Source of the DNA: Granulosicoccus sp.
Lineage (GTDB): Bacteria > Pseudomonadota > Gammaproteobacteria > Granulosicoccales > Granulosicoccaceae
Assembly (NCBI GenBank): GCA_023301725.1
Contig: JALZUD010000079.1
Coordinates: 3,324-67,323, forward strand
DNA: 64,000 nt
Direction: 5' to 3'
Part shown: positions 10,729 to 46,009 of the stretch, piece by piece
Numbering within the stretch: the stretch's first letter is position 1
Layout of the letters: each line of letters starts with the position of its first letter
Notes under the pieces: model-generated
What the model was told of the DNA's origin: nothing
The model's database searches: none
What the model saw: the letters and a program-made list of their open reading frames with translations, nothing else
Program-made: the position numbers and the translations under genes

Positions 10729-12564
10729 TCAGGGTTGAAGCAGCACAGCTTTAACTCGGGCAATGGATCTGATCCACGGCTGGTCGCGCTGTGCGGAATC
10801 TGGCATACGCTCGACAGCTTGTTGTGCCTGGCTAACCCCTTCGAATGAGCCATGTACCAGCGCGTACCAGACTTCCCCAGCTCTTTCGAAAGAAAAAATG
10901 GAGTTGGGTCCGGGTAATGGGTTTCTTCGCAGAAAGTCCTGAATCGAATCAAGATCTCTGGAGGCACTCAATTGGATGGTGTACCTTTCGTCGTCTTGCA
11001 CGAGTATCCAGGTGGGTGACTCCAGCACGCCGGCAAGCGTGCTGTCTATAGGCTCAGGGGTGTTCGCAGGCGTAGCTTGTTCGGCGGGCTCTTGAGCGAC
11101 TTCGGGTTCGGTTATTTGTTCGTTCAGTTCTCTCAGGGCGGCTTGCGCCTCTAGAGCCTCTGCCTCGGCAACAGCGTTTGCGGCATCTTCAGCAGCGGTA
11201 TCGTCATTGGCAGATACAGCACTGTCATCGGCTACGGGCGCATCTGGCGTTTGCGCGATCGCGTTGTCAACGCTCGAATCGACTGCCTCATTAACGTTGT
11301 CAGTGGCCTCGACGGGGCTGTTTATGATGGTGGTATCCTCCGCCACAATAACGGTTGGGGACCTCGATTCTGAATCCAAAGGAGGCAGGCTTGCTACATC
11401 AGATGCAGCGTCAGCGATGGCGTCCGTTGTGTCTTGAACGACATTGTTAGCCGCATCCGTGGCATTGCTCGCCGCATCCTGTATCGCATTTGCCTCAGTT
11501 GCATTGGAGATAGTTTGGCTATCGATGACCTGCAAATCAGGCACCTCAACGGTATTTTCCGAGGATTGCGCGATTACGCTGGTTCCTGGCTCAGAACGGC
11601 TGGGGTTATCATCGGCTCGGAACATTAAAAGCCCACCTACGATCAATAAAGTGGCGACTGCTCCCAAAGCTAGCTTGCCAAAGCTAGACTGCATAAAGCC
11701 TATTGGCTGAGTGCTAAGCAATTCATTGGGTAGCTCGTTATCTATACGGCCGTATTTTTCATTGAGTACATCAGCAGTGAGCAGGTTTAGCTGGCCAGGC
11801 CTGCCTGCGCTGTGTTCCACAAGGCTGTCCATGTCCCGTTCTGTGAACGGAAATTCCTGATCAAAACCTGCCAGTTGTAGGCGGTAGTCTATGTAGGCCG
11901 CAGCTCTTGGAGCTGACAAGCCCTCTACAGTCAGGCTGGAATAGGGTAGATCAGCGCCTTCTGGTAACAATTCAGGAATGGTGTCTTCAAATTCTTCAGT
12001 GGCGGCCAGCGTGATACGCATCAGGGTTTCGTCCTGACTATTCATGTACAACATGCCGCTGAGAAGCTGCGTGAGCTCCTCCTTTCTTGCCATGTGAGCG
12101 TCGTCCAGAACAATGGTGCAAAGTGTGTTTCTGGCTACCATGGACTGCAAATGTGGGATGAGCTCGTCGAGCACGTCTTTGAGATTTGCTGGGGGGGCTT
12201 GATGAAATGCTTCCAACATGCCTGAAAACAGAGTCAGAGTCTTGAATCGCTCGTTTGCGGCCACCGGGAAACATTGGATCCTTAAGCCGCTATTGGCATC
12301 CAGTTGTTTCAAAAGGGTGGATTTACCGGCACCTAGCTCTCCCAGCACCAGCAGTAAGTCGTCTCCGGTGATCAGAGCTTGTTTGATATCAGCTAATTGC
12401 TCCTCTGTGACGTCATCACTAAAGGGCAGTACAGCTTCGTCGTCCTGCTTTAACGAATCTTGCAACTGCGCAGTAAAGGGCTGATGTTGCAGATGCAGGG
12501 TTGATAGTGTGGCATCGGACAGCAATGCGCTGTTGTCCTGATCCATTGCATCTTTTGCCGGCAT
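10729..12564 (-). CDS. ExeA-like AAA domain plus SPOR domain protein (DamX-like)
   Basis: GELGAGKST P-loop, VLDDAH, one TM segment, acidic Ala-rich linker, C-terminal YTIQL..WYALVHGSF..PWIR SPOR; usual position after aroB. Confidence 0.85.
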   Translation of the reverse strand: MPAKDAMDQDNSALLSDATLSTLHLQHQPFTAQLQDSLKQDDEAVLPFSDDVTEEQLADIKQALITGDDLLLVLGELGAGKSTLLKQLDANSGLRIQCFPVAANERFKTLTLFSGMLEAFHQAPPANLKDVLDELIPHLQSMVARNTLCTIVLDDAHMARKEELTQLLSGMLYMNSQDETLMRITLAATEEFEDTIPELLPEGADLPYSSLTVEGLSAPRAAAYIDYRLQLAGFDQEFPFTERDMDSLVEHSAGRPGQLNLLTADVLNEKYGRIDNELPNELLSTQPIGFMQSSFGKLALGAVATLLIVGGLLMFRADDNPSRSEPGTSVIAQSSENTVEVPDLQVIDSQTISNATEANAIQDAASNATDAANNVVQDTTDAIADAASDVASLPPLDSESRSPTVIVAEDTTIINSPVEATDNVNEAVDSSVDNAIAQTPDAPVADDSAVSANDDTAAEDAANAVAEAEALEAQAALRELNEQITEPEVAQEPAEQATPANTPEPIDSTLAGVLESPTWILVQDDERYTIQLSASRDLDSIQDFLRRNPLPGPNSIFSFERAGEVWYALVHGSFEGVSQAQQAVERMPDSAQRDQPWIRSIARVKAVLLQP

Positions 12565-39612: not shown

Positions 39613-40872
39613 TTAGCGCAAACGCCAAAGACCGGAGCGTGCGCCTTCCGTTATTGCCAACACCAAATGGTAGAGCAAACGGCTGAGCGCTTCGGACCAA
39701 AGTGGGGTGCCTGAACTGTCTACCTGATTGATAAAGGCAGTTTTCCCCGCAAAGTACTGCTTAAATACAAGCAGCATTAAGGCTTCCGCCTTACGTGCAT
39801 GTTCGGGGGATGCGCTTCTAATGGCATGGGTTTTTATCGCTTCTGTTTGTGGCCAGAGCAAGAAGCTTTCCTCGCGCCACTGCGCATCAGATGAGACAGC
39901 ATCAAATGCACCCCCTTGCATTATGCCAGTCGACGAAAAGCCAATATTGTCTGAAAAACTCAGTAGCGCGTCTGCATATTCTTTCGTATCGCTTTGGCCG
40001 CTGAGTGTCGCTTCCCTACGGAGCAGCCAAGCCCACTCGCATTGATGGCCGACCTCTCGTCGTGTGCCGTCTCGGCCGGGTAGAGCACCAAGATCTGGTG
40101 CGATGAATTCGATAATGCTACCGCTATTGGCATCATAAAAGTATTCAAGTCCTTTAATTCGCATTTGCTTCGCACGGTCTAGCCAAATTGGTTTGCGCGT
40201 CATTTCAAAGGCTTGAAGAGCAGCCTCATACAGGTGCATGTGCGGGTTTTGAGCGCGCGGCGGTGTGTCAGCTATTGATGCATCACGCACTTCATTGTGT
40301 TCTAGCAAAAGGCCAGTTTTTGGATCAGTTAGTCGGGTTTCAAGAGCTGACCAACAAGACTCAATTTCTAGAGTTTCGTCAACGTCTGGCAGTAGATGCT
40401 CCCATGTCGCAAGGCCCAGAATGACAAAACTTTGATCGTAGCTAAATACGCGCTCATCGCCGTGTTCGCCGCTAAGGTGGTCGATATGGCCATCGTCATG
40501 GCTAGTGTCACGTGCATCAGACACACTAGTGGAGGTAGAGATTGCCCGGCAATAACCTCCGTGAGTGTCACGGAACAACGGCAAGGCCTCACGGGCAACC
40601 TTCGCTGCATCCTTGAACACAGGATTGCTTGAGTGATGCGCTAAATGCGAAAACGTAAAGAGCAGCCTTGCCTGAGCAAGAAGGGTGCTTCTATGGCATT
40701 GAGTGGGCTTTGCATTGATGTCCAGCTGGTCGTAAAAACCTTTGCTGTCGGGGATGCGAGCTTGCTTTACCCAAGCGGGTAGAAATTGATCTGTGAACCA
40801 ATCTATCCACTGATCTACTGTTGCAGTGTCGGAGGGTTGTTCGTTTGCACTGAGCTGTAGGGGAGAGGTCAT
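39613..40872 (-). CDS. AGE-family sugar epimerase/isomerase
   Basis: QARLLFTFS, FSYDQSF, QNPHMHLYEA, EVGHQCEWAWLL, LWPQTE..K, LYH. Start set at ATG 40872. Confidence 0.88.
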   Translation of the reverse strand: MTSPLQLSANEQPSDTATVDQWIDWFTDQFLPAWVKQARIPDSKGFYDQLDINAKPTQCHRSTLLAQARLLFTFSHLAHHSSNPVFKDAAKVAREALPLFRDTHGGYCRAISTSTSVSDARDTSHDDGHIDHLSGEHGDERVFSYDQSFVILGLATWEHLLPDVDETLEIESCWSALETRLTDPKTGLLLEHNEVRDASIADTPPRAQNPHMHLYEAALQAFEMTRKPIWLDRAKQMRIKGLEYFYDANSGSIIEFIAPDLGALPGRDGTRREVGHQCEWAWLLRREATLSGQSDTKEYADALLSFSDNIGFSSTGIMQGGAFDAVSSDAQWREESFLLWPQTEAIKTHAIRSASPEHARKAEALMLLVFKQYFAGKTAFINQVDSSGTPLWSEALSRLLYHLVLAITEGARSGLWRLR

Positions 40873-40885
40873 GGTAGGCACCGCG

Positions 40886-41593
40886 CTAGAGTTGTTTAAG
40901 AGCTTCCAGACCTTCAAAGTACTCTGGGTAGGTTTCTACTACGTGTGGCAAATCTTTTTTGATTTCTCGCAGATGTGTACGCATGGCTTTATCGGCAGCA
41001 CTGGCTTTGCGATCACGTATTGCGTCAACAATAGCTTGATGATGTTCAATGACTTTGGTAGGCGAGAATCTGCCAGCACTGATGTTGCGCACCCGGCTGA
41101 CTTGCACATTGAGACTTTCGAGGAAAGTGTTTACCTCAGGGGTTGCAGCATTGTGAGCCAGTGACTTGTGAAATACTTCGTCAAGACGCATGAGTTCAGG
41201 TAGATCAAGTGCTTGAGCTGCTTTGCGTTGTTGCTCCAGCTGCTCATAAAGTGACGTGATCATCTCATCGCTTGCCAATTTGCACACTCGACGCACTAGA
41301 TCGGCCTCCACCGCCTCTCTTACAAACCGAGCTGCCAGAGCTGAGGGGATGGAAATACGCGTTATGTACGTGCCCCGTTGTGGGCGAATGTGTACCAGCT
41401 GTTCTTCAGCGAGTTTGATAAACGCCTCTCTAACAGGTTGCCGAGATACTTCATAGGTTGTGGCAATTTCAGTTTCGGAGATACGCTGACCTGGCGCCAG
41501 TTCACAGGAAATGATTCGGTCGCGCAACTGCTTGTGCAGCTGCGGCGAGACAGCGACATCTAAAGACAAAGGTGTTACCGTCGGGATTTCCAT
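40886..41593 (-). CDS. GntR (FCD) family regulator
   Basis: LAPGQRISE..IA..Y.VSRQPVREAF..L, RPQRGT, DE.FH, HHQAIVDAI. Start set at ATG 41593. Confidence 0.92.
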   Translation of the reverse strand: MEIPTVTPLSLDVAVSPQLHKQLRDRIISCELAPGQRISETEIATTYEVSRQPVREAFIKLAEEQLVHIRPQRGTYITRISIPSALAARFVREAVEADLVRRVCKLASDEMITSLYEQLEQQRKAAQALDLPELMRLDEVFHKSLAHNAATPEVNTFLESLNVQVSRVRNISAGRFSPTKVIEHHQAIVDAIRDRKASAADKAMRTHLREIKKDLPHVVETYPEYFEGLEALKQL

Positions 41594-41638
41594 GGATTTC
41601 CTGCGTTTTAGGAATGCGTCCGTTATAACTAGATGCCG

Positions 41639-41666
41639 CATACTTGTCAACTTGTATGGCAGTATG
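41639..41666. promoter_or_regulatory. Putative GntR operator
   Basis: CATAC-ttgtcaactt-GTATG-gca-GTATG in the 109-nt divergent spacer between the GntR gene and uxuA. Confidence 0.5.
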
Positions 41667-41702
41667 ATAATGTCGCCGTAATACATCAAGCGAGTTATTG
41701 GC

Positions 41703-42920
41703 ATGCTTCAGACATGGCGTTGGTTTGGTCCAACCGATGCGCTCTCCATCGATGATTTAATGCAAGCTGGAGTGCGGGGTGTTGTATCGGCTTTGCACCA
41801 TATTCCACCGGGAGACACTTGGCTGCCACAACAAATCAGCCAAAGACAAACCGACATTGCACATATGAGCAACGGTAGCCTTTCTGGTCTAACGTGGGAT
41901 GTAGTCGAGAGTTTGCCTGTGTCCGAGGATATTAAACGGAAAACAGGCGACTGGAAGCGGCATGTGGCGAACTACTGTGAAAGTTTGAGCAATCTTCGTG
42001 CTGCCGGTATTGAGGTGGTTTGCTACAACTTTATGCCAGTACTTGATTGGACCCGAACTGATCTTGCTTATCCTTTAGCAAACGGTGCCACCTGCATGCG
42101 TTTCGACTACATCGATTTTGCTGTGTTTGATCTGCACATATTAAAGCGCGCCCAAGCGGCCGCTGAGTTCCCCGAAGACATCATTCAGGCGGCTACCAAG
42201 CGCTTTGCACAGATGTCTGAGGAGAGAAAAAAAGAGCTTCTTGACAACATCGTGTGTGGTCTACCTGGAGCCGCAGAATCCCTATCTATAGAGGGTGTTC
42301 GGGAGAGCCTAGCGGTCTACAACACCATTTCTGCTGATCAGCTTCGAGCCAATCTTATCGATTTTTTGTCAGAAGTTGCACCCCATGCACAGATGCTGGG
42401 CATGCGGCTGTGCTGTCATCCTGATGACCCACCCATTCCTTTGCTGGGATTGCCGCGAATCATGTCAACGCAAAGCGATTATCAAACCATTCTCGCTGCA
42501 GTAGATGTGCCCTCCAATGGCGTAACCCTATGTTCTGGGTCATTGGGCGCGCGCAACGATAACAACTTGCCACAAATGATGAAGCAGCTTGGTGATCGGG
42601 TGCATTTTCTTCATCTGCGAAATGTTAAGCGTGAAACCGATGGTCTGTTTGGTAGTTTTCACGAAGCAGAGCATCTTGGTGGAGACACCGATATGGTTGC
42701 ACTTATTGCTGCAATCCTAGAAGAAGAACGCAGACGAAAGGTCGTTGGGCGCGCTGATGCGTCGATTCCCTTCCGGCCCGATCACGGGCAAAACATTCTT
42801 GATGATCATAAGCGTAAGTCCCAGCCGGGATACCCTGCCATAGGCAGACTCAAGGGGCTTGCTGAATTAAGAGGCATCGAGGCCGCACTTAGCCATAAGG
42901 CATTGGAATCTGGCCTATGA
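41703..42920 (+). CDS. uxuA: Mannonate dehydratase
   Basis: TWRWFGP, VVSALHH, CYNFMPVLDWTRT, HPDDPP, CSGSLG, HFLHLRN, RPDHG, GRLKGLAELRG. Confidence 0.96.
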   Translation: MLQTWRWFGPTDALSIDDLMQAGVRGVVSALHHIPPGDTWLPQQISQRQTDIAHMSNGSLSGLTWDVVESLPVSEDIKRKTGDWKRHVANYCESLSNLRAAGIEVVCYNFMPVLDWTRTDLAYPLANGATCMRFDYIDFAVFDLHILKRAQAAAEFPEDIIQAATKRFAQMSEERKKELLDNIVCGLPGAAESLSIEGVRESLAVYNTISADQLRANLIDFLSEVAPHAQMLGMRLCCHPDDPPIPLLGLPRIMSTQSDYQTILAAVDVPSNGVTLCSGSLGARNDNNLPQMMKQLGDRVHFLHLRNVKRETDGLFGSFHEAEHLGGDTDMVALIAAILEEERRRKVVGRADASIPFRPDHGQNILDDHKRKSQPGYPAIGRLKGLAELRGIEAALSHKALESGL

Positions 42921-43099
42921 GCAGCTCATTCAAAATAATGAGCATAACGTTTTACGGATTGTCGACTGTGGTCGACTCCATCCACTATACGGAACTTGTG
43001 CGCCTGTTTGGCGTTGTTCCGTTACTACCACTGCCCGTCTCGTCGGGATCACTTGCGTACGATCGCGGCAATGCCGCAAAAAACCATTGGAGATAACAA

Positions 43100-44092
43100 A
43101 TGAAATTTTTAAAATCGACTCTTGCAGCCACTGCAATTGCAACCGTACTAGGAGGCGTGGCTATGACTGCAAGCGCCGCCGATCTTACACTGCGTGCCGC
43201 TAGTCTTTTTGATGAAGAGCATGCCTATACCAAAACATTACGAGAGTTTGAGCGTCTTGTTGCTGAAGCGTATACAGGTGAAATTGAGTTTGAAATGCAC
43301 CTAAACGGTGAGCTAGGTGACGAGAGCGATTTCGTGACATTTTTACAGCAGGGTGTTGCTATTGATTACGCGGTAATGGCGCCTTCGAACATGGCTGTTT
43401 TTGCTCCAGCAATTCCATTGATGGATATGCCTTTCTTATTCCGTGATTTAGATCATTGGAATGCCGTACTGTCTTCAGATGTTTTAAAGCCACTCGAAGA
43501 TGAGCTGTCTGAAAAAGCTGACATCAAAGTTATAGGCTATGCAGGCGGTGGTACTCGTAACTTAGCTTCAGCCGATCCTATTGCCAATATGGATGAACTG
43601 ACGGGCCACAAGATGCGCGTTATGGGCGCACCTATCCAGGCAAAAATCTTTGCATCTATTTCAGCAGCACCTGCAGCTATTGCTTACAACGAAGTCTATA
43701 ACGCTATCCAGACTGGTGTTATTGGTGGATTCGAAAACGAAGCAGCGTCAATTCAGAACCTTAAGTTCTACGAAGTAGCACCAAACATCACATTAACCAA
43801 GCATGCGATTACTGTGCGCCCATTGGTGATGAGTGGCAAGAGCTTTCGCAACCTGTCAGAAGACCTACAAGCTATTGTTATGGAAGCAGGCGCCGCTGCT
43901 GGTGCTTTCGGTCGTGAGATCGAAAGCCGTGAAGATGGTGAGAAGCTGAAAGTTATGGAAGATGCTGGTCAAATTGTGGTCACTGAATTCGAAAACCGTG
44001 ATCAGCTGCTAGAGCTTGTTGTTCCGGTTCAAGATGAATTTGCTGCTGATCTTGATGCTACTGAATTGCTCGAAGCTATTCGCGCAATGTAA
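43100..44092 (+). CDS. TRAP transporter substrate-binding protein (DctP)
   Basis: Signal peptide, PFLFRD..H, G.KMRVM, YNEVYNAIQTGVI.G.EN. Confidence 0.92.
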   Translation: MKFLKSTLAATAIATVLGGVAMTASAADLTLRAASLFDEEHAYTKTLREFERLVAEAYTGEIEFEMHLNGELGDESDFVTFLQQGVAIDYAVMAPSNMAVFAPAIPLMDMPFLFRDLDHWNAVLSSDVLKPLEDELSEKADIKVIGYAGGGTRNLASADPIANMDELTGHKMRVMGAPIQAKIFASISAAPAAIAYNEVYNAIQTGVIGGFENEAASIQNLKFYEVAPNITLTKHAITVRPLVMSGKSFRNLSEDLQAIVMEAGAAAGAFGREIESREDGEKLKVMEDAGQIVVTEFENRDQLLELVVPVQDEFAADLDATELLEAIRAM

Positions 44093-44127
44093 TTAGTTAG
44101 AAACGCGGCACACCAGATTAGCTTGGT

Positions 44128-44652
44128 GTGCCGCATCGATTCACCTATTTGGACGCACTCACGATGGGCAAGGTACTTGAACATTTTTGTATGGGGCTAC
44201 GTTTCCTGGTCGGTCTGTTGACCATGCTGTTAGCGTTGCCGGTAGCCGCCCAGGTCTTAGCTAGATACACTGGAATCATTCCTGTGTATCTTTGGACCGA
44301 AGAGCTAGCAACTTTCATTTTTGTATGGGTGGTAATGATAGGTTCTATGATTGCAGTATGGGATGGCACGCATTTTTCGGTAGAGGTTTTGCCTGAGTCA
44401 AAATCGCCACTCATAAAACTTATTCAAAAATCATTTGTACTTGTTCTACTCATAATGTTCGGATTGATGTTTGCCTGGTACGGAATTGAATACACAAAAT
44501 TTGGTTTCATCCAACACTCTGTAATGTTGAATGCCAATATGGTTGTTACACATGTGTCTGTATTAATTGCCGGGCTGGTGTGGGCTTTGTTCGCTGGGTA
44601 CCGTCTGTATGAAGCCATCGGTGAGTATCGACAGACGAGGACTGCCTCATGA
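44128..44652 (+). CDS. TRAP transporter small permease (DctQ)
   Basis: QV.ARY, WTEELA.F.FVW, HFSVE; four TM; start may be ATG 44164. Confidence 0.9.
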   Translation: MPHRFTYLDALTMGKVLEHFCMGLRFLVGLLTMLLALPVAAQVLARYTGIIPVYLWTEELATFIFVWVVMIGSMIAVWDGTHFSVEVLPESKSPLIKLIQKSFVLVLLIMFGLMFAWYGIEYTKFGFIQHSVMLNANMVVTHVSVLIAGLVWALFAGYRLYEAIGEYRQTRTAS

Positions 44653-45959
44653 TGATAATTTCAACAGGCTTGGCGTGTGCGATTCTGGTAGGTGGTTTTC
44701 TTCTATTGGTAATGCTTCGCGTACCGGTCGCTTTTGCTTTGGGCTTAGCCACCATCCCCATTGTTGTACTTGATTTACGCTTAACACCGTTCATTCTTCT
44801 TGACCGGATGTTTCAATCTTATAACTCCTTTATTTTGCTGGCTGTGCCGTTCTTTTTGTTGGCAGCAAACTTAATGAATTCAGGCAAGATTACAGACCGG
44901 ATGATAGACCTTGCAAAGGTCATGACGGGCTGGCTTCCTGGTGGCTTAGGCCACGTTAACGTTGTAGTGTCCATGTTATTCGCAGGCATTTCAGGCTCGT
45001 CAACAGCGGATGCTGCGGGTTGTGGCAAGATTCTGATACCCGCCATGAAGCGTGAAGGCTTTGATGCTCGATTCGCTGTCGCTATCACCGCATGTTCATC
45101 GGTCATGGGGGTCATTATTCCACCAAGTATCTTGATGGTGGTTTGGGGTGGTGTCATGCAAATATCGGTAGGTGCCTTATTTCTCGCGGGTGCTGTGCCT
45201 GGATTTCTTATTGGTCTGGCGTTGCTCCTTACCGTCTATGGCTATGCCAAAGCGCACGGATATCCAACCTCTGCTCGCCCAACGCTCGGTGAATCCTGGA
45301 GAGCATTTACCGGTTCAATCCTTGCTCTACTGACACCCGTGTTTGTGGTGGGCGGAATTATTGGTGGCATTGTGACGCCTACTGAGAGTGCCATCATCGC
45401 GGCAGGCTACGCAATGATTCTGGGCTTGTTTGTTTATAGAACCGTCAGCTTTAAACAGCTGGGTCATATTTTTTACGACACCGGAAGGTTTGCATCGATT
45501 TCGCTTTTTGCTATCGGCACCGCTACCGCGTTTGGATGGTTGCTGGCTTACTATAAAGTGCCTCGTTTAATTGTTGAGTGGCTAACGCTAATTGATGCAG
45601 GTCCCTTTGGAACAGGCCTAGTCATCGCATTGTTATTCTTGTTGTTCGGTTTGTTCATTGATGCCATCCCCACCATCATCATTCTAGGCACTGTTTTAAT
45701 GCCGGTGGCAGCAGGCGCTGACATCCATCCGATTGTGTTCGCTATCATCGGGATTATTTCTTTGGCTTTTGGACTCGTAACCCCGCCTTATGGATTGTGC
45801 TTGCTTATCTCAGCCGCCATTGGCGAATTGAATGTGGTGCAAGTGATCAAGGATGTGGTGATTATCCTGATACCTATGCTCGTCATCCTGCTTCTGGTTA
45901 TTGTCTTTCCAGAGATAGCACTGTGGTTGCCACGGTTGTTTATGCCAGGGACTATCTAG
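44649..45959 (+). CDS. TRAP transporter large permease (DctM)
   Basis: LLAVPFF.LA, FAGISGSS.AD, IIPPSI, TPTES, TPPYG. Confidence 0.94.
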   Translation: MMIISTGLACAILVGGFLLLVMLRVPVAFALGLATIPIVVLDLRLTPFILLDRMFQSYNSFILLAVPFFLLAANLMNSGKITDRMIDLAKVMTGWLPGGLGHVNVVVSMLFAGISGSSTADAAGCGKILIPAMKREGFDARFAVAITACSSVMGVIIPPSILMVVWGGVMQISVGALFLAGAVPGFLIGLALLLTVYGYAKAHGYPTSARPTLGESWRAFTGSILALLTPVFVVGGIIGGIVTPTESAIIAAGYAMILGLFVYRTVSFKQLGHIFYDTGRFASISLFAIGTATAFGWLLAYYKVPRLIVEWLTLIDAGPFGTGLVIALLFLLFGLFIDAIPTIIILGTVLMPVAAGADIHPIVFAIIGIISLAFGLVTPPYGLCLLISAAIGELNVVQVIKDVVIILIPMLVILLLVIVFPEIALWLPRLFMPGTI

Positions 45960-45968
45960 CGGTAAGGC

Positions 45969-46009
45969 AAAAAAAAGGACGATCACCGGATTGGGCCGAT
46001 GATCGTCCT
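45969..46009 (-). terminator. Intrinsic terminator for the rpoH-direction transcript
   Basis: AGGACGATCA../..TGATCGTCCT stem with an A8 run that reads as a U-tract on the minus strand. Confidence 0.7.

Follow-up and report, generated by a model that had tools for sequence, protein, structure and literature searches.

A candidate D-mannuronate isomerase of the AGE superfamily encoded with uxuA and a TRAP transporter in a kelp-associated Granulosicoccus

We analyzed a stretch of 64,000 nucleotides, referred to here as the window, from Granulosicoccus sp., a kelp-associated marine bacterium (assembly GCA_023301725.1, contig JALZUD010000079.1, positions 3,324 to 67,323). Positions 39613-45959 of the window hold six genes in two divergent units: an AGE-superfamily enzyme and a GntR/FCD regulator on one side, and the D-mannonate dehydratase UxuA with a DctPQM TRAP transporter on the other. 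On balance, we favor a function in which the AGE enzyme would convert imported D-mannuronate to D-fructuronate, with UxuB acting in trans and UxuA, KdgK and Eda following. The locus most likely takes up free mannuronate, one of the building blocks of alginate. In brown seaweeds, alginate can account for much of the dry mass, and textbook bacterial alginate catabolism tracks only the unsaturated lyase product (DEH). In a 2019 review of hexuronate catabolism, no route is given for free D-mannuronate (PMC6353982).

All six genes were found where the initial annotation had placed them, in the divergent arrangement it had described. Gene starts were assigned by weighing the longest open reading frames against likelier start codons, and family scores were read against Pfam, NCBIfam and TIGRFAM cut-offs. 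The product of uxuA (41703..42920, plus strand) belongs to the UxuA family, with 472.2 bits against TIGR00695 (cut-off 199.55) in a match spanning residues 1-399 of 405 and 516 bits against NF003027. A single PF03786 match in the genome identified it as the only UxuA-type gene. Farther along the plus strand are dctP (43100..44092), encoding the TRAP solute-binding protein (NF037995, 194 bits, cut-off 50); dctQ (44128..44652), encoding the small membrane subunit (PF04290, 78.8 bits); and dctM (44649..45959), encoding the large membrane subunit (PF06808, 339.5 bits; TIGR00786, 369 bits, cut-off 268). With a gap of 35 nt between dctP and dctQ and an overlap of 4 nt between dctQ and dctM, these three adjacent subunits form a TRAP-T system. 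The 179-nt spacer between uxuA and dctP was searched for a remnant of uxuB and none was found.

Mature DctP matched PDB entries 4NX1 and 4OVP with an E value of 3e-151 and ~75% identity over 305 residues, and its fold matched 4OVP with a Z score of 38.3 at 74% identity. Both entries describe a TRAP binding protein of Sulfitobacter sp. NAS-14.1, target EFI-510292, solved "with bound" ligand, and at this high identity DctP falls into the EFI-510292 binding-protein group. The ligand is reportedly alpha-D-mannuronate in 4OVP and alpha-D-taluronate in 4NX1. According to a review, the TRAP ligands reported by the source study include D-mannuronic, L-guluronic and D-taluronic acids (PMC12076931). By homology, D-mannuronate and D-taluronate are the probable ligands for which the window DctP is specific. 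More distant DctP homologues, with 63-68% identity, form a second tier seen in ~20 Granulosicoccaceae genomes with or without AGE and UxaC; these may be paralogous uronate binders of other specificity. Separately, the binding protein of UxaC-containing clusters, which carry a different TRAP type, had as its best PDB match the apo structure 4P1E and no ligand-informative relative.

The AGE-superfamily gene lies on the minus strand (39613..40872). Its longest open reading frame covers 39613-40917, and the likely start at 40872 gives a protein of 419 aa, the same length as an identical public database copy. Membership in the AGE fold was established by a PF07221 score of 120.5 bits (cut-off 23.4) and by a predicted model with pLDDT 91 that matched D-mannose isomerase 5X32 (Z 42.5), cellobiose and glucose 2-epimerases (Z 40-42) and YihS (Z 37). 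Overall, the fold matches had Z scores of 36-42.5 over 358-376 aligned residues at 15-20% identity to solved relatives. The catalytic histidine motifs, described as intact by the initial annotation, proved invariant in 19 homologues as part of the set R69, H211/H213, H276, E279 and H402. Of these residues, R69, H213, H276 and E279 align with the Arg, NTHLH and GHDIE motifs of Rhodothermus cellobiose 2-epimerase (RmCE) and with 5X32. H402 would be the C-terminal catalytic His as judged from its invariance, the alignments to RmCE and 5X32 stopping short of it. The protein scored far below the curated equivalogs for D-mannose isomerase (NF051846, 23.3 bits versus 600) and cellobiose 2-epimerase (NF041848, 29.3 versus 800). 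It matched PF07221 only, with no homology to the UxaC family (PF02614), and any function common to the two proteins would be by analogy. Public database names for the subfamily are generic or guessed ("mannose-6-phosphate isomerase", "cellobiose epimerase-like", "AGE family epimerase/isomerase"). The genome also encodes a second, canonical AGE paralogue (contig C4:77208-78260) with a PF07221 score of 330 bits, compared to ~120 for the window protein; this C4 paralogue may be the true mannose or N-acetylmannosamine (ManNAc) enzyme of this organism.

To describe the genomic context of the AGE subfamily, we scanned one genome per species and obtained 80 loci, from Granulosicoccaceae, many Rhodobacteraceae, Hyphomonadaceae and Rhizobiales, counting genes within 10 kb of AGE. 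The recurrent linkage of AGE to uxuA held up: UxuA was found at 45 loci, an orthologous GntR regulator at 42, a UxuB-like protein at 35, UxaC at 24 and the TRAP type of the window at 18. At least one of UxuA, UxuB-like, the window TRAP type, UxaC and ManD was present at 53 of the 80 loci, in both alpha- and gammaproteobacteria, and orthologues of the window DctP occur in roseobacter AGE clusters. Four layouts were distinguished. In the first, GntR-AGE diverges from UxuA-UxuB-DctPQM; the second is the same arrangement without UxuB, seen in the window, in L020 and L033, and in L009, a close relative of the window. In the third, UxuB-UxuA diverges from GntR-AGE and is accompanied by UxaC and a different TRAP transporter. 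The fourth, found in Yoonia-type clusters, combines a GFO/MocA oxidoreductase, ManD, DctPQM, AGE and an SDR protein, with a heparinase II/III-like lyase added in one locus. Constant across these layouts are AGE and a TRAP transporter, while the dehydratase and the reductase are exchanged for analogues, which suggests that mannonate is an intermediate.

One variation in cluster content was seen in Hyphomonadaceae. In L021, L025, L026 and L028, an Nramp-family membrane protein (~11250-12510) stands between AGE and a distant UxuA (~44% identity), replacing the TRAP transporter; an Nramp-like protein is unusual in a sugar-acid operon. In L021, genes for a sodium:solute symporter, a GFO/MocA oxidoreductase and ManD are present as well.

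The distribution of UxaC and UxuB was complementary to that of AGE. In clusters of the first layout, which contain AGE, UxuA, UxuB and the TRAP transporter, UxaC was absent genome-wide in all eight tested (L010, L012, L013, L059, L030, L036, L045 and L017). In clusters lacking uxuB, UxaC was present elsewhere in four of four genomes (the window genome and those of L009, L033 and L020), adjacent to uxuB in the window genome. A survey of 85 Granulosicoccaceae genomes gave a similar picture: 12 were AGE-positive, all 12 had UxuA, and UxaC was missing in 10 of them (completeness 80-98%). The 34 UxuA-positive genomes of this family divided into 16 with UxaC only, 10 with AGE only, two with both and six with neither; five of these last six are <90% complete, and two of the six carry an 85%-identical DctP. 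From these gene distributions, UxuB seems to be required but suppliable in trans, and AGE apparently can stand in UxaC's place. This complementarity is the pattern expected if AGE makes fructuronate.

The rest of the genome supplies the remaining steps. The initial annotation had reported the locus to be without uxaC and uxuB and had proposed that the reductase is encoded elsewhere. The absence is real for the window but not for the genome. A genuine uxaC (NF002794, 546.7 bits, cut-off 387) lies on contig C25, adjacent to a gene of the mannitol-dehydrogenase family whose best model is fructuronate reductase; the pair occupies C25:50381-53268. The reductase was therefore correctly anticipated, and at the same time the genome has a normal uxaC-uxuB pair, which the initial annotation had named beforehand among the findings that would speak against its reading. 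There is no uxuA alongside the pair, so the glucuronate route relies on the uxuA of the window, or on ManD, and the loci are mutually dependent. Given this pair, AGE adds to UxaC in this organism rather than replacing it.

Genes for upstream and downstream steps were also found. A PL7 alginate lyase domain (C11:4-831; PF08787, 149 bits) is encoded by a gene cut by the contig start, which leaves both this gene and whatever lies upstream of it incomplete in the assembly; eda is part of an edd-eda operon on contig C12, and a KdgK-like kinase is encoded on C53. With the lyase, Eda and the kinase present, the organism can cut alginate and complete the 2-keto-3-deoxygluconate (KDG) route, its genes being scattered. 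A probable alginate-oligosaccharide locus (C43:10900-20150) contains, in this order, a GntR/FCD regulator, an ABC importer (an ATPase, two permeases and a 520-aa binding protein), a 780-aa lyase with DUF4962 and heparinase II/III-like domains, and a ManD-type mannonate dehydratase. The latter matched solved ManD enzymes with an E value of 1e-155 and is 79% identical to the ManD of the Yoonia AGE clusters. This locus is without a DEH reductase, and a mannonate (or gluconate) dehydratase lying next to the lyase gives a hint of saturated uronates being processed by this cluster.

The two units of the window locus share one control region (41622..41671). The regulator gene (40886..41593, minus strand) encodes 235 aa with PF00392 and PF07729 domains; its longest open reading frame covers 40886-41704, and the likely ATG at 41593 is preceded by a GGAA ribosome-binding site. 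Its stop codon is separated from the AGE gene start by 13 nt. The regulator is not an equivalog of UxuR or ExuR (36.4 bits versus 442 for NF007588; 21.3 versus 396 for NF008571), and orthologues with 43-93% identity adjoin the AGE gene in the 42 loci counted above. Within the 109-nt uxuA-gntR spacer, promoters stand back to back with their -35 hexamers overlapping in the palindrome TTGTCAA. The uxuA promoter on the plus strand consists of TTGTCA (41644-41649), a 16-nt spacer and GATAAT (41666-41671), scoring 10/12, and the gntR promoter on the minus strand, read by eye, of TTGACA (41650-41645), a 17-nt spacer and TATAAC (41627-41622). Operator units lie on either side of TTGTCAA: GTATGGCAGTATG (41654-41666), which takes up the uxuA promoter spacer, and CATAC in inverted orientation (41639-41643) on the opposite side of the palindrome.

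The single operator proposed by the initial annotation was borne out by its conservation. Of 34 orthologous uxuA-gntR spacers taken from alpha- and gammaproteobacteria, 28 contain the consensus GTATGGAAGTATG with at most two mismatches. The motif adjoins TTGAC(A/T) in these spacers and frequently makes up a 40-bp palindrome. In a genome-wide scan, the window operator was the only site with at most one mismatch, and the regulon therefore appears to be local. The other matches of that scan were at chance level with two mismatches, none of them convincing upstream of uxaC-uxuB. From this arrangement, the GntR/FCD protein is likely a repressor of both divergent operons.

Taken together, these results suggest the following route. 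The DctPQM transporter would take up free (saturated) D-mannuronate. The AGE enzyme would open the pyranose ring and shift the carbonyl from C1 to C2 via an enediol, yielding D-fructuronate, with catalysis through the conserved His/His-x-x-Glu/His set as in mannose isomerase and the sulfoquinovose isomerase YihS. UxuB, supplied from outside the cluster by the uxaC-uxuB pair on C25, would then reduce fructuronate to D-mannonate, and the UxuA of the locus would dehydrate mannonate to KDG, which would pass through the KdgK-like kinase and Eda into the Entner-Doudoroff branch. The GntR/FCD protein would repress both promoters from one operator over their common -35 region and probably be released by a pathway intermediate. 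Gene identities, linkage, conservation of the operator, the resemblance of DctP to a solved protein and the complementarity with UxaC and UxuB across genomes are direct observations; the substrate and product of AGE, the ligand of DctP, and repression and its inducer are inferred. An isomerase entry step of this kind is plausible and would be widespread in marine bacteria.

Several observations weigh against this assignment. First, in 22 of the 80 loci the AGE gene has no informative context and stands by itself among housekeeping neighbors. Second, AGE and UxaC share one operon in 24 loci, so that AGE cannot be regarded as a mere substitute for UxaC. Third, the "UxuB-like" genes within clusters score 326 bits, compared to a curated fructuronate-reductase cut-off of 603. 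Fourth, incompleteness of metagenome-assembled genomes weakens the calls of missing UxaC, and related genomes are not independent samples. Fifth, no enzyme assay for any member of this AGE subfamily was found in the literature searched. Lastly, with UxaC in this genome, a 2-epimerase converting mannuronate to glucuronate would work equally well.

This last point leads to the strongest alternative, in which AGE is a uronate 2-epimerase acting from D-mannuronate to D-glucuronate, or from D-taluronate to D-galacturonate, and UxaC isomerizes the product before UxuB and UxuA act. C2 epimerization is the commonest chemistry of the AGE family, represented among the fold matches by cellobiose, glucose and N-acetylglucosamine 2-epimerases, and both the uxaC-uxuB pair of this genome and the 24 shared operons agree with it. 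However, there is no UxaC to take the product in any of the eight self-contained clusters or in 10 of the 12 AGE-positive Granulosicoccaceae. Furthermore, AGE-family isomerases usually perform both reactions, and epimerization may be a side activity rather than the physiological one. We consider this alternative unlikely.

It is also quite doubtful, and a little more so, that mannuronate is reduced straight to mannonate by a dehydrogenase of the mannuronate-reductase type, leaving AGE an accessory role on another substrate such as taluronate, guluronate or an anomer. An enzyme activity of this type has been described (mannuronate reductase, EC 1.1.1.131), most clusters contain an oxidoreductase of the Mannitol_dh or GFO/MocA type, and taluronate is reportedly also bound by the related binding protein. 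Yet long-chain mannitol-dehydrogenase enzymes act on a C2 keto group, not on an aldehyde, the window cluster retains AGE without an oxidoreductase, and AGE with TRAP is the core that stays constant in all cluster variants. That AGE acts on a neutral sugar (mannose, mannobiose or ManNAc), its placement in the locus being metabolically meaningless, is very improbable: all characterized relatives except YihS use neutral or N-acetylated sugars, and the solitary loci and public names such as "mannose-6-phosphate isomerase" and "cellobiose epimerase-like" fit this, but hexuronate linkage in 53 of 80 loci spans two proteobacterial classes and several gene orders, AGE is co-transcribed with a regulator whose operator would also govern uxuA, its scores lie far under every curated equivalog cut-off, and a separate canonical paralogue exists on C4.

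Isomerization of mannuronate to fructuronate is thus the function we retain for the window enzyme. The initial annotation had suggested a non-orthologous uronate isomerase active on mannuronate; the comparative evidence for it is strong, coming from DctP, from linkage and from relatives that lack UxaC and keep AGE, UxuB and UxuA, but the presence of UxaC in this same genome tempers it. Its description of the locus as a candidate new route to mannonate was too broad, since the path from fructuronate through mannonate to KDG is already known, as are the TRAP class and the AGE fold, and only the entry step, a uronate-specific AGE enzyme, would be new. We give roughly even chances to the wider proposal that the subfamily is dedicated to isomerizing D-mannuronate to D-fructuronate and is thus the first uronate-specific AGE member and a non-orthologous counterpart of UxaC, which with a mannuronate TRAP transporter would form a previously undescribed pathway in roseobacters and kelp-surface Granulosicoccaceae consuming the saturated mannuronate left by alginate lyases. 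No mannuronate isomerase, reductase or 2-epimerase, nor any AGE enzyme acting on mannuronate, was found in the literature searched, though a 2015 study of TRAP binding proteins, which lay outside the search, may have predicted one.

The locus is bounded by a GC-rich hairpin of 14 pairs (45976..46009) between the convergent dctM and rpoH genes, which probably acts as the closing terminator of the operon. On the minus strand, with its T-run toward rpoH, the hairpin was scored as the terminator of rpoH, and it may end transcription both ways. Upstream of the locus are a cytochrome oxidase assembly operon, a LysR regulator and a Zn peptidase, and downstream rpoH-ftsXEY. Because these neighbors on both sides are unrelated housekeeping genes, the module is compact and self-contained.

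Should this AGE subfamily prove to be the entry enzyme that has been missing, it would close a gap in marine carbon cycling and account for the mannuronate-type TRAP transporter of kelp-surface Granulosicoccus and many roseobacters. Thousands of genes now named "AGE family epimerase/isomerase" or "mannose-6-phosphate isomerase" could then be annotated specifically, and an enzyme would become available for the biotechnological conversion of alginate-derived uronates.

The closest metabolic counterpart is the Ashwell hexuronate pathway of E. coli (UxaC, UxuB, UxuA, KdgK and Eda, with UxuR and ExuR). The later intermediates fructuronate, mannonate and KDG would be the same, UxuA is the same and UxuB probably so, and in both systems a GntR/FCD-type regulator is associated with a divergent operon. 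In contrast, the proposed entry sugar here is D-mannuronate rather than glucuronate or galacturonate, and the entry enzyme would be an AGE protein with an (alpha/alpha)6 barrel, bearing no relation to UxaC, which has an amidohydrolase fold. A TRAP transporter takes the place of ExuT, the regulator falls outside the UxuR and ExuR equivalogs, and at least four contigs share the genes among them. Among enzymes, YihS (7AG4, 2AFA) and D-mannose isomerase 5X32 share the fold of the window AGE (Z 37-42.5 over ~365 residues) and its catalytic set of Arg, His, His-x-x-Glu and His, and YihS demonstrates that sugars bearing an anionic group at C6 can be substrates for the AGE family. The window protein differs from both in its identity of 15-20%, in not reaching their curated models, in a proposed substrate with a C6 carboxylate and in its partners, which are hexuronate genes rather than those of sulfoglycolysis or mannose metabolism. 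For uptake, the nearest relative is EFI-510292 of Sulfitobacter sp. NAS-14.1 (Vetting et al. 2015), which at 74-75% identity probably forms one isofunctional group with the window DctP. Finally, ManD routes such as L-gulonate catabolism follow the same logic of TRAP sugar-acid uptake followed by fructuronate, mannonate and KDG, and ManD takes the place of UxuA in Yoonia-type AGE clusters and adjoins the lyase on C43 of this genome; those routes, however, enter via an aldonate dehydrogenase, without any AGE enzyme.

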